From: Escherichia coli
GTDB taxonomy: Bacteria; Pseudomonadota; Gammaproteobacteria; Enterobacterales; Enterobacteriaceae
Reading direction: 5' to 3' (one strand)
DNA length: 64,000 nucleotides
Assembly: GCF_003334785.1 (NCBI RefSeq)
Contig: NZ_QOWV01000007.1
The notes beneath the pieces were generated by a model. It did no database searches. It saw only the letters and a list, made by a program, of their open reading frames with translations, and was not told the DNA's origin. Within the stretch, counting starts at the first letter, position 1; every line of letters starts with the position of its first letter. The position numbers were made by a program, and so were the translations under genes. Below are positions 2,261 to 10,189 of the stretch, in pieces.

Positions 2261-4924
2261 TTACGCCAGACGCGGGTTAACTTTATCTGCATCGATGTTG
2301 AATTTGGCGATTGCGTCAGCAACCACTTTCTTATCGATTTCGCCACGTTTAGCCAGTTCGCCCAGCGCCGCAACCACGACATAAGAAGCATCAACTTCGA
2401 AGTGGTGACGCAGGTTCTCACGGCTGTCGGAACGACCGAAGCCATCAGTACCCAGTACGCGGTAGTCGTCAGCCGGTACGTAAGTACGGACCTGCTCAGC
2501 GAACAGTTTCATATAGTCGGTAGATGCCACTGCCGGAGCGTCGTTCATCACCTGAGCGATATACGGAACGCGCGGAGTTTCCAGCGGGTGCAGCATGTTC
2601 CAGCGTTCACAATCCTGACCATCACGCGCCAGCTCGGTGAAGGAGGTCACGCTATAAACGTCAGAACCTACGCCGTAATCTTTCGCCAGGATCTCAGCTG
2701 CTTCACGGACGTGACGCAGGATAGAACCGGAGCCGAGCAGCTGAACTTTACCTTTGCTACCTTCAATAGTTTCGAGTTTGTAGATACCTTTACGGATACC
2801 TTCCTCAGCACCTTCCGGCATTGCCGGCATGTGGTAGTTTTCGTTCAGCGTAGTGATGTAGTAGTAAACGTTCTCTTGTTTTTCACCGTACATACGCTCC
2901 AGACCGTCATGCATGATGACAGCAACTTCGTAAGCGTAAGCCGGGTCGTAAGAGATACAGTTCGGGATAGTCAGCGACTGAATGTGGCTGTGACCATCTT
3001 CGTGCTGCAGACCTTCGCCGTTCAGGGTGGTACGACCGGAAGTACCGCCGATCAGGAAGCCACGCGCTTGCTGGTCGCCAGCCGCCCAGCACAGATCGCC
3101 AATACGCTGGAAGCCGAACATCGAGTAATAGATGTAGAACGGGATCATCGGCAGATTGTTGGTGCTGTAAGAGGTCGCCGCTGCCAGCCAGGAACAACCT
3201 GCGCCCAGCTCGTTGATCCCTTCCTGCAGAATCTGACCTTTCTCGTCTTCTTTATAGTAAGCAACCTGCTCGCGGTCCTGCGGGGTGTACTGCTGACCGT
3301 TCGGGCTGTAAATACCAATCTGACGGAACAGACCTTCCATACCGAAAGTACGCGCTTCGTCGGCGATGATCGGTACCAGACGATCTTTGATCGACTTGTT
3401 CTTCAGCATCACGTTCAGAGCACGAACGAAAGCGATAGTGGTAGAGATCTCTTTGCTCTGCTCTTCCAACAGCGCGCCGAAGTCTTGCAGGCTCGGCAGC
3501 TCAAGCTTCTCGGTGAAGTTCGGCTGACGGCTTGGCAGATAACCGTGCAGTTTCTGACGCTGAGCGTGCAGATAGGTATGCTCTTCAGAACCTTCCGGGA
3601 AGGTGATGTACGGCAGTTTTTCGATATCTGCATCAGACACCGGCACATTGAAACGGTCGCGGATATGACGCACACCGTCCATGTTCATTTTCTTAACCTG
3701 GTGCGCGATGTTTTTACCTTCAGCCGCGTCGCCCATGCCGTAACCTTTAATGGTATGAGCAAGGATTACTGTCGCTTTGCCTTTGGTTTCCTGCGCTTTC
3801 TTGAATGCAGCGTAGATTTTCTTCGGATCGTGACCACCACGGTTCAGTGCCCAGATCTGCTCGTCAGTCCAGTCTGCAACCAGTGCTGCGGTTTCAGGAT
3901 ATTTACCGAAGAAGTGTTCACGAACGTACGCACCATCTTTCGATTTGAAGGTCTGGTAGTCGCCGTCAACGGTTTCGTTCATCAGCTGGATCAGTTTACC
4001 GCTGGTATCCTTACGCAGCAGTTCATCCCAACGGCTACCCCACATCACTTTGATCACGTTCCAGCCAGCACCTTCGAAGATGCCTTCCAGTTCGTTGATG
4101 ATCTTGCCGTTACCGGTGACCGGGCCGTCAAGACGCTGCAGGTTACAGTTGATAACGAAGACCAGGTTATCCAGTTTTTCACGGGTAGCGATGGTGATCG
4201 CACCTTTGGATTCCGGTTCGTCCATTTCACCGTCACCGAGGAACGCGTAAACGGTTTGTTTAGAGGTATCTTTCAGGCCACGGTGTTCCAGATATTTCAG
4301 GAATTTAGCCTGGTAAATAGCACCAATCGGACCCAGACCCATAGATACGGTCGGGAACTGCCAGAATTCCGGCATCAGTTTCGGGTGCGGATAGGAAGAG
4401 AGGCCATTGCCGTGAACTTCCTGACGGAAGTTATCCAGCTGCTCCTGAGTCAGACGACCTTCCAGGAAAGCACGAGCGTACACGCCCGGGGAGATGTGGC
4501 CCTGGAAGTAAACCAGGTCGCCGCCATCCTGCTCGTTGCGTGCACGGAAGAAGTGGTTAAAGCACACATCATAAATGGTTGCGGAAGACTGGAAGGACGC
4601 CATATGGCCGCCCAGTTCGAGGTCTTTTTTCGACGCACGCAGCACCGTCATGATGGCGTTCCAGCGGATAGCTGAACGAATACGGCGTTCCAGTTCCAGA
4701 TTACCCGGATACTCCGGTTGTTCTTCAACGGGGATGGTGTTGATGTAGTTGCTGATACCTGTGCCTGCGGCTACGTTTACACCGCCTTTGCGGGCTTCAG
4801 CAAGCAGTTGGTCGATCAGATACTGAGCACGCTCAACACCTTCTTCACGGATGACCGATTCGATCGCCTGGAGCCAGTCGCGAGTTTCGATCGGATCCAC
4901 GTCATTTGGGAAACGTTCTGACAT
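2261..4924 (-). CDS. aceE: pyruvate dehydrogenase E1 component
   Basis: 887-aa ORF starting [29 protein letters not shown]; 14 bp upstream of aceF on the same strand. Confidence 0.97.
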
Positions 4925-5084
4925 GGGTTATTCCTTATCTATCTAATAACGTTGAGTTTTCTGGAACCTGTCCCATTGAACTCTCGCCGGAAAGCTCAAT
5001 AAGACAGGTTCTACGTTTAGTTGCCGCGCTTTTATATGCGCTTGATTTACAACATCTTCTGGATAATTTTTACCAGAAAAATCA

Positions 5085-5849
5085 CTAATTCTTTCGTTGC
5101 TCCAGACGACGCAGAGAACGCTCACGGCGGCTCTCTTCACGACTTCTGTCGAGCAAAATTTCTTCGATAAAGGCCAGATGGCGATGCGATGCTTCGCGCG
5201 CTTCTTCCGGCTTACCGGCCATAATCGCTTCAAATATGCGGGTGCGGTGACTACTCACCAGCGGCAGCATCTCGCGACGCGAATAGAGCAATTCGAAGTT
5301 CTGGCGGACATTCTGGGCCAACATCGGCTCCATACACCTTAGCAGATGAAGCAGAACCACATTGTGGGCCGCTTCGGTGACGGCAATCTGATACTGGAGT
5401 ACGGCGTTTGATTCCGCGTCCAGATCGCCAGACTGCTGCGCCAGCTCTATGGCGTGGTGGAGTTCACGGATGCGTTCCTTGTCTTCATCGGTACTACGCA
5501 GCGCGGCGTAATAAGCGGCGATACCTTCCAGGGCGTGTCGTGTTTCGAGCAAGTCATACTGTGACTCAGGATGGTCGGAGAGCAGCTCCACCAGCGGATC
5601 GCTGAAGCTTTGCCATAGGCTGCTCTGGACAAAAGTGCCGCCACCCTGGCGACGAAGCAACAAGCCCTTCGCTTCGAGACGTTGAATCGCCTCACGCAAG
5701 GAGGGACGGGAGACGTCAAACTGTTTTGCCAGTTCGCGTTCCGGTGGGAGTTTTTCGCCCGGGCGGAGAGTGCCTTCGAGGATCAAAAACTCCAGTTGCT
5801 GCTCAATCACATCGGAGAGTTTTGGTTGGCGGATTTTGCTGTAGGCCAT
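5085..5849 (-). CDS. pdhR: GntR-family pyruvate-responsive repressor of the pdh operon
   Basis: ORF track gives 265 aa from an upstream in-frame ATG; the known N-terminus [17 protein letters not shown] begins at the ATG at 5847-5849 (254 aa); winged-HTH then FCD-type domain. Confidence 0.93.
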
Positions 5850-5880
5850 GAGTTCCTGTCTTAAGCCACTTGCCGAAGTC

Positions 5881-5897
5881 AATTGGTCTTACCAATT
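5881..5897. promoter_or_regulatory. PdhR operator (perfect palindrome AATTGGT-CTT-ACCAATT) in the pdhR promoter region
   Basis: 17-bp inverted repeat read directly at 5881-5897, ~30 bp upstream of the pdhR start; matches the ATTGGTnnnACCAAT-type PdhR box. Confidence 0.7.
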
Positions 5898-6301
5898 TCA
5901 TGTCTGTGACGCTAAAGTAACAAAGTATTCACCTTATGTCCATACAGGTTTTGATTGAAATCATGAAACTGTGCACATTTTAACAACTTGACATATATAA
6001 CGTTTCAAAGTTGTAACTATGCACAAATGTAGACTTTACGTAGGAAAGGAGTTTTTTAACGATTATTAAACTATAAAAATCCGAATTGAACCGATTCACT
6101 TACCAATTTTGTGATTTTTAATTCAATTAAAACGAATTTAAATTCATTCTACATATTGAGAGGGGTTGAGGCTGAGCTTTACAAACGGTTTCTTTTTAAG
6201 CAACTCATCTTCAACCATGCATAAAGCGGGTGCATTCGCTGCCGCATACCATTATTCTTGATCTGACGGAAGTCTTTTTGTAACAATTCAAACTTCTTTG
6301 A

Positions 6302-6319
6302 TGTAAACAAATTAATACA
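6302..6319. promoter_or_regulatory. candidate TyrR box (TGTAAA-N6-AATACA) upstream of aroP
   Basis: TGTAAACAAATTAATACA matches the TyrR box consensus TGTAAA-N6-TTTACA at 10 of 12 positions; ~70 bp upstream of the aroP start; aroP is a known TyrR target. Confidence 0.4.
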
Positions 6320-6389
6320 ACAAACGGAATTGCAAACTTACACACGCATCACTGCGTAGATCAAAAAAACAACCACCGCACGAGGTTTC

Positions 6390-7763
6390 ATGATGGAAGG
6401 TCAACAGCACGGCGAGCAGCTAAAGCGCGGCCTTAAAAACCGCCATATTCAGCTTATCGCGCTGGGTGGCGCGATAGGGACCGGGTTATTCCTGGGTAGC
6501 GCCTCCGTAATACAGTCCGCAGGGCCAGGGATTATCCTGGGTTACGCCATTGCTGGTTTTATCGCCTTTCTGATCATGCGTCAGCTGGGTGAAATGGTGG
6601 TCGAAGAACCTGTCGCAGGCTCCTTTAGCCACTTTGCTTATAAATACTGGGGCAGTTTTGCCGGTTTCGCCTCTGGCTGGAACTACTGGGTACTGTACGT
6701 TTTAGTTGCCATGGCTGAGCTGACTGCCGTGGGTAAATACATTCAGTTCTGGTATCCGGAAATCCCCACCTGGGTTTCTGCCGCCGTATTCTTTGTGGTG
6801 ATTAACGCCATCAACCTGACCAACGTTAAAGTGTTTGGCGAGATGGAGTTCTGGTTTGCCATTATCAAAGTTATCGCGGTGGTAGCGATGATCATCTTCG
6901 GCGGCTGGCTGCTATTCAGTGGCAACGGCGGCCCGCAGGCGACCGTTAGCAACCTGTGGGATCAGGGTGGTTTCCTGCCGCACGGCTTCACCGGGCTGGT
7001 GATGATGATGGCGATTATCATGTTCTCGTTCGGTGGTCTGGAACTGGTGGGGATCACCGCAGCAGAAGCTGATAACCCGGAGCAAAGTATACCGAAAGCA
7101 ACTAACCAGGTTATCTACCGCATCCTGATTTTCTATATTGGTTCGTTAGCCGTTCTGCTCTCACTGATGCCGTGGACCCGCGTTACCGCCGATACCAGTC
7201 CGTTTGTGCTGATCTTCCACGAGTTAGGCGATACCTTTGTGGCGAATGCGCTGAACATCGTGGTACTGACTGCGGCGCTCTCCGTGTACAACAGCTGCGT
7301 ATATTGCAACAGCCGTATGCTGTTTGGTCTGGCACAACAGGGTAATGCGCCAAAAGCGCTGGCGTCTGTCGATAAACGTGGTGTACCAGTAAATACCATT
7401 CTGGTGTCTGCACTGGTAACGGCGTTGTGCGTACTGATTAACTACCTTGCCCCAGAGTCCGCTTTCGGACTGTTAATGGCGCTGGTGGTATCTGCACTGG
7501 TAATCAACTGGGCGATGATTAGCCTGGCGCATATGAAATTCCGTCGCGCCAAGCAGGAACAAGGCGTGGTAACTCGCTTCCCTGCTCTGCTTTATCCGCT
7601 GGGTAACTGGATCTGCCTGCTGTTTATGGCGGCGGTACTGGTGATTATGCTGATGACCCCAGGAATGGCGATTTCGGTATACCTGATCCCGGTATGGCTG
7701 ATCGTGTTAGGTATCGGCTATCTGTTTAAAGAGAAAACCGCCAAAGCCGTAAAAGCGCATTAA
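6390..7763 (+). CDS. aroP: aromatic amino acid:H+ symporter (APC family permease)
   Basis: 457-aa ORF MMEGQQHGEQLKRGLKNRHIQLIALGGAIGTGLF...; polytopic membrane protein; divergent from pdhR. Confidence 0.96.
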   Translation: MMEGQQHGEQLKRGLKNRHIQLIALGGAIGTGLFLGSASVIQSAGPGIILGYAIAGFIAFLIMRQLGEMVVEEPVAGSFSHFAYKYWGSFAGFASGWNYWVLYVLVAMAELTAVGKYIQFWYPEIPTWVSAAVFFVVINAINLTNVKVFGEMEFWFAIIKVIAVVAMIIFGGWLLFSGNGGPQATVSNLWDQGGFLPHGFTGLVMMMAIIMFSFGGLELVGITAAEADNPEQSIPKATNQVIYRILIFYIGSLAVLLSLMPWTRVTADTSPFVLIFHELGDTFVANALNIVVLTAALSVYNSCVYCNSRMLFGLAQQGNAPKALASVDKRGVPVNTILVSALVTALCVLINYLAPESAFGLLMALVVSALVINWAMISLAHMKFRRAKQEQGVVTRFPALLYPLGNWICLLFMAAVLVIMLMTPGMAISVYLIPVWLIVLGIGYLFKEKTAKAVKAH

Positions 7764-7805: not shown

Positions 7806-8660
7806 TTACACCAACGCCCCGTAAATCGTCAGTAGTGCAATCACCACCACGACTACGAACGAGGTTTTCTTCGCCATTGAAACCGCTGCCTTCGGCGTCT
7901 CCACCTTATCGACATGCGGTTCACGCGCCAGAGAGAACTGCGCCAGACGCGTTAACACCTGATACTGCGAAGTATGGAAATCACCCAGCGAAGCAAACCA
8001 GGCCGGTAACGCTTTCTCACCATGACCGATCAAGGCATATACCACACCCGCAAGACGAACCGGCACCCAATCCAGTACATGAAGCACGGCATCAATGCCG
8101 GACTGTAAACGATGATGCGGCGTCTGATATCGCGCCAGCCAGTATTGCCATGCACGCAAAAACGCATACCCCATCAGCGTAACGGGTCCCCAGGTTCCCC
8201 CCACAATCAGCCAGAACAGCGGTGCAAGATAAAAACGAAAGTTAATCCACAGCAATGCATTTTGCAGCTCACGCAAATACTCACGTTCGTCGCAGCCTGC
8301 CGGGACGCCGTGAATCATGGTGAGTTCGCCAGCCATCGTGGCACGGGCATGGCTATCATTACGTGAAGCAGCTGTCAGATAAGCATGATAATGAAGACGA
8401 ACTTTACCTGCGCCAATACACAGCAAACCAATCAGCAGCCACACCAGTAGCGTGGGAACGTTGAACAATACTCCCTGCAATGCGCGTAACAGTAAAAAAG
8501 TCACGCCCATCGCAATAATGGTCATGCCTAACGTGCGCCCGAGAGAAAAATGTTTCACCCGCCGAAAGAACGCTTCAAGACGATGATCAAGCTGCCAGTG
8601 CTCGCCCAACTTAAACAGGCGCTCGAAAATTAACACCAGTAAGGTTGTAAATAGCGTCAT
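7806..8660 (-). CDS. ampE: inner-membrane protein AmpE
   Basis: ORF track 297 aa; known N-terminus [16 protein letters not shown] begins at ATG 8658-8660 (284 aa); start overlaps ampD stop as ATGA. Confidence 0.93.
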
Positions 8661-9208
8661 GTTGTCTCCTTGCTGACCAGCACACGAAACCGTGCCCAAT
8701 CAAATGCAGGACCGGGATCGGTTTTCCGATCCGGCGCAATATCACAATGGCCCGTCATGTTTTTAGCGATATCCGGATAGCAATCAATCAGTGCCCGCGT
8801 AACCGCCGCAAGCTGTTGATACTGCGCATCGGTATACGCCAGCGTATCGGTGCCTTCAAGCTCAATCCCAATAGAAAAATCATTGCAGCGTTCGCGCCCC
8901 TGATACTGAGAGACTCCCGCATGCCATGCACGTTTATCGAAAGGAACATACTGGACTATTTCACCATCACGGCGAATCAAACAGTGAGCGGAGACGCGCA
9001 AATGGGCGATCTCAGCAAAGAAAGGATGTGCCTGCGGATCAATAGTTCCAGTGAATAATGCGTCGATCCACGGACCGCCAAACTCGCCTGGCGGCAGGCT
9101 AATATTGTGCACCACCAGCAGGGTGGGTGTTTCGTCATCCGGGCGGCAATCGTAATGTGGTGAGGGAACGCGGCGCGCGCCAACCAGCCACCCCTGTTCT
9201 AACAACAT
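8657..9208 (-). CDS. ampD: 1,6-anhydro-N-acetylmuramyl-L-alanine amidase
   Basis: 183-aa [42 protein letters not shown]...; amidase_2 family. Confidence 0.96.
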
Positions 9209-9235
9209 GCAGGATCTCCTTATATGTGGTGCTAA

Positions 9236-10189
<954 letters not shown>

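Follow-up and report, generated by a model that had tools for sequence, protein, structure and literature searches.

The pdhR-aroP spacer of Escherichia coli read as two regulatory modules flanking a poorly conserved AT-rich core

The 540-bp spacer between pdhR and aroP in the Escherichia coli DNA analysed here (a window of 64,000 nucleotides from contig NZ_QOWV01000007.1, assembly GCF_003334785.1) is, in our view very probably, the known bidirectional control region that serves pdhR-aceEF-lpd leftward and aroP rightward, organised as two separate regulatory modules with a poorly conserved AT-rich core between them. The pdhR module would span roughly 5850-6100 and the aroP module roughly 6185-6389. 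Both the region and its parts, namely the PdhR operator, the TyrR boxes and the mechanism of the divergent promoter P3, are already known, with their characterisation reaching back to the 1990s. An earlier note, made from the letters of this DNA, had read the stretch as a divergent pdhR-aroP control region; the bounds that it gave are exact, and the spacer is 100% identical to positions 121552-122091 of E. coli K-12 MG1655 (K-12 coordinate = 127941 - window coordinate). The features discussed below are collected in Table 1.

Table 1 Features and conserved blocks of the pdhR-aroP spacer (window coordinates; offsets are relative to the mapped pdhR start; block conservation refers to species outside Escherichia).
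Feature	Position	Strand	Description
pdhR-aroP spacer	5850-6389		540 bp; pdhR ATG 5849 (-), aroP ATG 6390 (+)
pdhR 5' leader	5850-5907	-	58 nt; experimental TSS 5907 = K-12 122034; upstream sequence ...TTACTTTAGCGTCA (PMC3415461)
PdhR operator AATTGGTcttACCAATT	5881-5897		7-3-7 inverted repeat; pdhR transcript positions +11 to +27
pdhR core promoter	5914-5942	-	-10 TACTTT 5919-5914, 17-bp spacer, -35 TGGACA 5942-5937; positioned from the mapped TSS
FNR site TTGATTGAAATCAT	5951-5964		centre -50.5; 9/10 positions of TTGATN4ATCAA
CRP-like site TGTGCACATTTTAACA	5970-5985		centre -70.5; 2 mismatches to TGTGAN6TCACA
ArcA-like direct repeat	6053-6072		minus strand reads AGTTTAATAATCGTTAA; about -155; 3 mismatches to TGTTAAN5TGTTAA
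Cra (FruR)-like palindrome TGAACCGATTCA	6087-6098		centre -185.5
Second CTTACCAATT copy	6099-6108		repeats 10 bases of the PdhR operator; probably not functional
aroP P3	6246-6274	-	-10 TGGTAT 6251-6246; putative -35 GACTTC 6274-6269; inferred start ~6239
aroP P1	6253-6265	+	-10 TATTCT 6253-6258; experimental TSS 6265 = K-12 121676; upstream sequence ...CATTATTCTTGATCTG (PMC3415461)
aroP 5' leader	6265-6389	+	125 nt; Shine-Dalgarno GAGG 6382-6385; mRNA targeted by the small RNA GcvB
TyrR strong box TGTAAACAAATTAATACA	6302-6319		10/12 consensus positions, G-N14-C (G6303, C6318)
TyrR weak box CGGAATTGCAAACTTACA	6325-6342		8/12 consensus positions, G-N14-C (G6326, C6341); 5 bp from the strong box
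Block: PdhR box	5881-5897		arms exact in 75/75, central triplet varies
Block: pdhR -10/-35 and TTGATTGAAATCAT	5909-5964		promoter kept in 73/75
Block: CRP-like TGTGCACATTTTAACA, -70.5	5970-5987		invariant in sampled genera
Block	6000-6032		ACGTTTCAAAGTTGTAACTATGCACAAATG; high conservation
Block: ArcA-like direct repeat	6054-6072		TTTTTAAC and TAAAC conserved
Block: TGAACCGATTCA	6087-6098		exact in 68/75, fixed distance from pdhR
Block: aroP P1/P3	6185-6258		high conservation
Block: both TyrR boxes	6302-6342		GTAAA and TACA (strong box), CGGAAT and TTACA (weak box) near-invariant
Block: aroP ribosome-binding region including Shine-Dalgarno GAGG	6379-6388		high conservation

The spacer and its phylogenetic footprint

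Across complete E. coli genomes the spacer is matched in 5424 of 5426, with at least 80% of its length covered in 4364, and RefSeq places no feature in it in K-12 or in the 25 genomes sampled. Its G+C content is 35%, against 53% for the window, and dips to 23-30% at 6030-6130, in agreement with the very AT-rich middle that the earlier note had pointed out. All three strings singled out in that note are present where it had put them (AATTGGTCTTACCAATT at 5881-5897, CTTACCAATT at 6099-6108 and TGTAAACAAATTAATACA at 6302-6319). On the left, minus-strand pdhR is followed by aceE at 2261-4924. The intergenic stretch between these two genes carries, at 4927-5040 (+) and thus on the strand opposite to both, a strong match to the Rfam tp2 small RNA family (RF02030, 103 bits, E = 1.7e-19), and a published TSS at 5329 (-), K-12 122612, lies inside the pdhR coding region and is attributed to aceE, with a leader of 405 nt.

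Transcription starts were taken from a genome-wide TSS data set (supplement of PMC3415461), which lists a single start each for pdhR and aroP and whose tabulated flanking sequences match the window. With these starts at 5907 and 6265, the PdhR box occupies transcript positions +11 to +27 of pdhR and the TyrR boxes fall downstream of aroP promoter P1, as published. Conservation was assessed over 75 non-Escherichia species from a PdhR protein scan that took one genome per species and returned 80 loci. In the DNA fetched for these loci, aroP is divergent from pdhR in 78 of 80, and the spacer measures 524-653 bp in 77 and 1978 bp in one, a Superficieibacter locus. Our own observations thus concern identity to K-12, the positions of motifs relative to mapped starts, their uniqueness within the window and their conservation over the 75 species, and the actions of PdhR, TyrR, FNR, ArcA, Cra and GcvB, together with the P3 mechanism, are taken from the literature.

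Operator and upstream sites on the pdhR side

The operator proposed in the earlier note at 5881-5897 corresponds to the published PdhR box AATTGGTaagACCAATT, which matches 14 of 14 consensus positions and is centred at K-12 122052, window 5889; the aroP/pdhR spacer also gives the strongest PdhR gSELEX peak genome-wide, positioned at 121966, window 5975 (PMC7660256). All 14 specified bases of AATTGGTnnnACCAATT, the consensus of the same study (PMC7660256), are matched here, including the GGTnnnACC core, and no other site in 64 kb does so. The operator, a repressor site of the GntR/FadR family, is likewise the sole match without mismatches to ATTGGTNNNACCAAT in the window, while matches to the PdhR pattern with up to three mismatches occur about as often as expected by chance (24 found, 25 expected). 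Both arms, AATTGGT and ACCAATT, are exact in every one of the 75 other species, with variation confined to the central triplet (CTT in 67, ATG in 3, CAT in 2, AAT in 2 and CTG in 1). The earlier note's description of a perfect 17-bp palindrome needs amending, as the reverse complement reads AATTGGTAAGACCAATT and just the two 7-bp arms are complementary, the central CTT not.

The core promoter, TGGACA-N17-TACTTT, is retained in 73 of the 75 non-Escherichia species. RNA polymerase starts at 5907 on the minus strand, and in the absence of pyruvate a PdhR dimer on the 7-3-7 inverted repeat would block transcription; the overlap of the operator with the early transcribed region fits such a repressor block. 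Promoter and operator are identical to those described for E. coli K-12 (Quail and Guest 1994/1995; Ogasawara 2007; Anzai 2020, PMC7660256) at the same locus, here seen on the opposite strand.

Upstream of this promoter lies a layer of sites, one for FNR and candidates for CRP, ArcA and Cra, that the earlier note had missed. The approximately 125 bp at 5909-6035, upstream of the pdhR start, are nearly invariant from Escherichia to Klebsiella and Enterobacter, and partly in Serratia, a degree of conservation exceeding that expected of synonymous sites in the flanking genes and accounted for in part by the FNR and CRP-like sites. For FNR, the centre computed here coincides exactly with the published site position of -50.5, and the FNR ChIP-seq peak at 121,987 falls on window 5954 (PMC3688515); the block is near-invariant (TTGAT...ATCAT).

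The assignment of CRP, ArcA and Cra to particular conserved blocks is our own proposal. pdhR is among the listed CRP targets, and the CRP-like sequence at 5970-5985, invariant across the sampled genera, would be a candidate site; the Cra ChIP-exo paper describes the action of CRP as class II, though the best CRP-like match here is centred at -70.5. Upstream of pdhR, two regions bound by ArcA are reported from ChIP-seq, and we tentatively place ArcA at the direct repeat 6053-6072, of which TTTTTAAC and TAAAC are conserved.

The Cra-like palindrome is the sole exact match to TGAANCGNTTCA in 64 kb, keeps its distance from pdhR in the 68 species in which it is exact, and, in strains that carry the island described below, is still present on the pdhR side. 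It also matches perfectly TGAAnCGnTTCA, which we take to be the core of the Cra consensus. Cra is known from ChIP-exo to repress pdhR-aceEF-lpd, with pdhR as a target, and we infer that 6087-6098 may be its site, but the ChIP-exo wording, which has the site 'downstream of two promoters', does not obviously match a box at -185.5. A scan downstream of the pdhR promoters returned only weak Cra-like sites, at 5683-5694 (1 mismatch) and 5221-5232 (2 mismatches), and a full-text literature search with the strings of the Cra-like and TyrR boxes retrieved unrelated primer sequences only. Taken together, FNR at -50.5, the CRP-like site at -70.5, the ArcA-like repeats and the Cra-like box at -185.5 would add oxygen and carbon-source control to the regulation by PdhR.

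Promoters, TyrR boxes and leader on the aroP side

The main aroP promoter, P1, starts transcription at 6265, and its block is conserved. With this start and a leader of 125 nt (PMC3415461), the AT-rich core (~6040-6180) lies upstream of P1 and not in the leader, contrary to the long aroP leader that the earlier note had deduced from the AT-rich middle. In Klebsiella and Raoultella (loci L065 and L069-L075) the spacer reaches 640-653 bp, as about 100 bp are inserted in the leader of aroP, after the TyrR boxes and ahead of the ribosome-binding site.

The TyrR-box-like element that the earlier note had placed at 6302-6319 is borne out: it is the sole match with up to two mismatches to TGTAAAN6TTTACA in 64 kb, and with 10 of 12 consensus positions and the pair G-N14-C it answers to the definition of a strong box (at least 10/12 matches plus an invariant G-N14-C; PMC4374768) and belongs to a spacer in which TyrR binding to boxes is documented (PMC7142922). 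The weak box at 6325-6342, which that note had overlooked, has fewer than 10 of 12 matches, retains G-N14-C, is adjacent to the strong box and is conserved. Measured from the P1 start, the two box centres are 45.5 and 68.5 bp downstream; the centre of the strong box is also ~71.5 bp upstream of the estimated start of P3. Binding of TyrR to two boxes downstream of the aroP start, in a documented strong-plus-weak arrangement, is described in PMC7142922 and PMC4374768, and the literature also documents that aroP repression depends on the boxes.

The additional divergent promoter that the earlier note had thought possible does exist, as the known aroP promoter P3. According to PMC7142922, PMC4374768 and PMC3167631, P3 lies on the opposite strand and overlaps P1, and its activation by TyrR shuts P1 off. 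Its -10 is TGGTAT (PMC7142922). The hexamer GACTTC is a putative -35 that we placed by 17-bp spacing, and the P3 start at ~6239 is likewise estimated from the sequence; GACTTC as the -35 fits the published report that the Salmonella bongori P3 -35 (CACTCT) differs from that of K-12 at three bases (PMC7142922). TyrR with an aromatic amino acid would sit on the strong and weak boxes downstream of P1 and recruit RNA polymerase to the overlapping, oppositely oriented P3, so that polymerase would be excluded from P1. The same two adjacent boxes downstream of P1 and the same TGGTAT overlapping it are found in the account of aroP P1, P2 and P3 by Wang, Yang and Pittard (1997-1999), as recounted in PMC7142922, PMC4374768 and PMC3167631, with no sequence difference from what is described there. 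Just 13 of the 75 other species have the exact P3 -10 hexamer, and many genera have TGGTAA, with the last T lost and the TyrR boxes still conserved; the repression mechanism through P3 may therefore be limited to some lineages.

GcvB, which represses aroP post-transcriptionally through its R1 seed (PMC11878033), adds a further level of control. Whole-molecule pairing of GcvB with aroP in RNAduplex produced a long duplex without meaning; when the search was confined to the R1 seed, the top-scoring site was 6393-6422, at the start of the aroP coding region (-29.2 kcal/mol), a result that is not decisive, with 1.6% of shuffles as good. Literature matches to 'aroP' in PMC8496792 were discarded, as they refer to 'ArOP', anti-rRNA probes unrelated to the gene.

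The AT-rich core: a partial operator repeat and an island insertion site

The 10-mer CTTACCAATT of the PdhR operator recurs at 6099-6108, where the earlier note had seen a second half-site. The recurrence of an operator 10-mer in the spacer is nominally unexpected (P about 0.006, 5000 dinucleotide shuffles), and it is retained within Escherichia only, to the same degree as its surroundings. In our reading it is probably a chance or lineage-specific repeat rather than an operator. Two functional readings were weighed against this one. The first joins the copy to its neighbour: the Cra-like palindrome at -185.5 and the Escherichia-only PdhR half-site, which stands in helical phase with the main box (~211 bp), might form a composite remote operator at which Cra and PdhR act together, or which supports a DNA loop, tuning pdhR and perhaps aroP. 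We consider this quite improbable; if true, it would add an undescribed long-range layer to a textbook promoter.

Slightly less probable still, to our mind, is that 6099-6108 is on its own an auxiliary PdhR half-operator that acts in cooperation with the main one, for instance through a DNA loop, or that lets PdhR act on aroP. Besides the shuffle result, it would be favoured by a centre-to-centre distance of ~211 bp to the main box, close to 20 helical turns, and by the displacement of the gSELEX peak (121966, window 5975) aroP-ward of the PdhR box, but this offset falls within the resolution of the tiling array. The copy has no left arm, so that a full-operator match at up to three mismatches is not reached (more than three mismatches to the 12 specified bases), and it lacks the GGTnnnACC core that the PdhR study deems essential (PMC7660256), the spacer containing a single such core, elsewhere. 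The second CTTACCAATT is found in none of the 75 other species, against 75 of 75 for the main box, and the columns of 6099-6108 are only 10-60% conserved though they directly abut the near-invariant Cra-like box. B2-group E. coli retain the Cra-like box, with CCAAGCAAC after it in place of the second copy, while stray 7-mer PdhR arms occur at random positions in 4 of the 75 species. These observations favour the chance or lineage-specific repeat.

Within the species, the core (6040-6219) is the integration site of the pathogenicity island PAIusp, and the window represents the empty, K-12-type site. Among the 5426 complete E. coli genomes, 1059 carry usp, and these correspond almost exactly to the 1060 in which just the leading 142-190 bases of the spacer are matched. 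The usp island of CFT073 and two other strains (loci L083, L084 and L085) separates pdhR from aroP, lies on the pdhR strand and contains usp (annotated tssD) and bacteriocin immunity genes. These strains are 98-100% identical to the window over 5850-6039 and share the Cra-like box, whereas on the aroP side 6220-6389 is only ~75% identical (13579-13747 in the CFT073 locus). Strains of one species are normally far more alike than this, and the low value, in a stretch that includes P1/P3 and both TyrR boxes, suggests that the flank was imported with the island. The arrangement corresponds to the PAIusp site reported in B2/uropathogenic E. coli and in Salmonella bongori, which occupies the same intergenic region and in which usp is driven by aroP P3 (PMC7142922); PAIusp strains have ~6100-6219 replaced by ~4 kb (usp plus imu1-3), and the window lacks the island. 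CFT073 carries, in addition, an IS3-family element (8143-9447 of its locus) just after the CRP-like site, with 5984-5991 on both sides as an apparent 8-bp target duplication; the element stands between the core promoter of pdhR and the conserved blocks distal to it.

A scan of the spacer against Rfam returned no family, and a consensus sigma-70 promoter and terminator scan of 5700-6500 returned nothing, a blank that is explained by the real -10 hexamers, TACTTT for pdhR and TATTCT for aroP, lying below its thresholds. Three short ORFs at 5912-6026 (-), intact in 59-67 species, were not taken as coding: they are overlapping frames within the invariant promoter block, ahead of the pdhR start, and are open only through the invariance of the DNA itself, which makes them uninformative on coding. 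That the core holds an unannotated small protein, as the earlier note had left open for a short ORF, or else another productive promoter or a small RNA, is highly improbable: mechanical ORFs of 24-44 aa are present and P3 transcripts run leftward into the core, but the core ORFs (5980-6099, 6111-6224, 6144-6218, 6166-6261, 6179-6310 and 6211-6345) stay open in just 0-4 of the 75 species, the sole 'conserved' ones are the overlapping frames just described, the spacer has neither an Rfam or sigma-70/terminator consensus match nor a RefSeq feature in K-12 and the 25 sampled genomes, the TSS data set gives one start only for each of pdhR and aroP, and 1059 of 5426 genomes have the island in place of the core.

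As a discovery the region is of little weight. Its chief use is as a calibration, in that the two motif calls of the earlier note were right and each of its three speculative extensions was either mistaken or already accounted for, and the sole loose end of interest is the conserved distal Cra-like box at -185.5. For the family, the footprint offers a compact map of the parts of the pdhR-aroP spacer that are constrained across Enterobacteriaceae.
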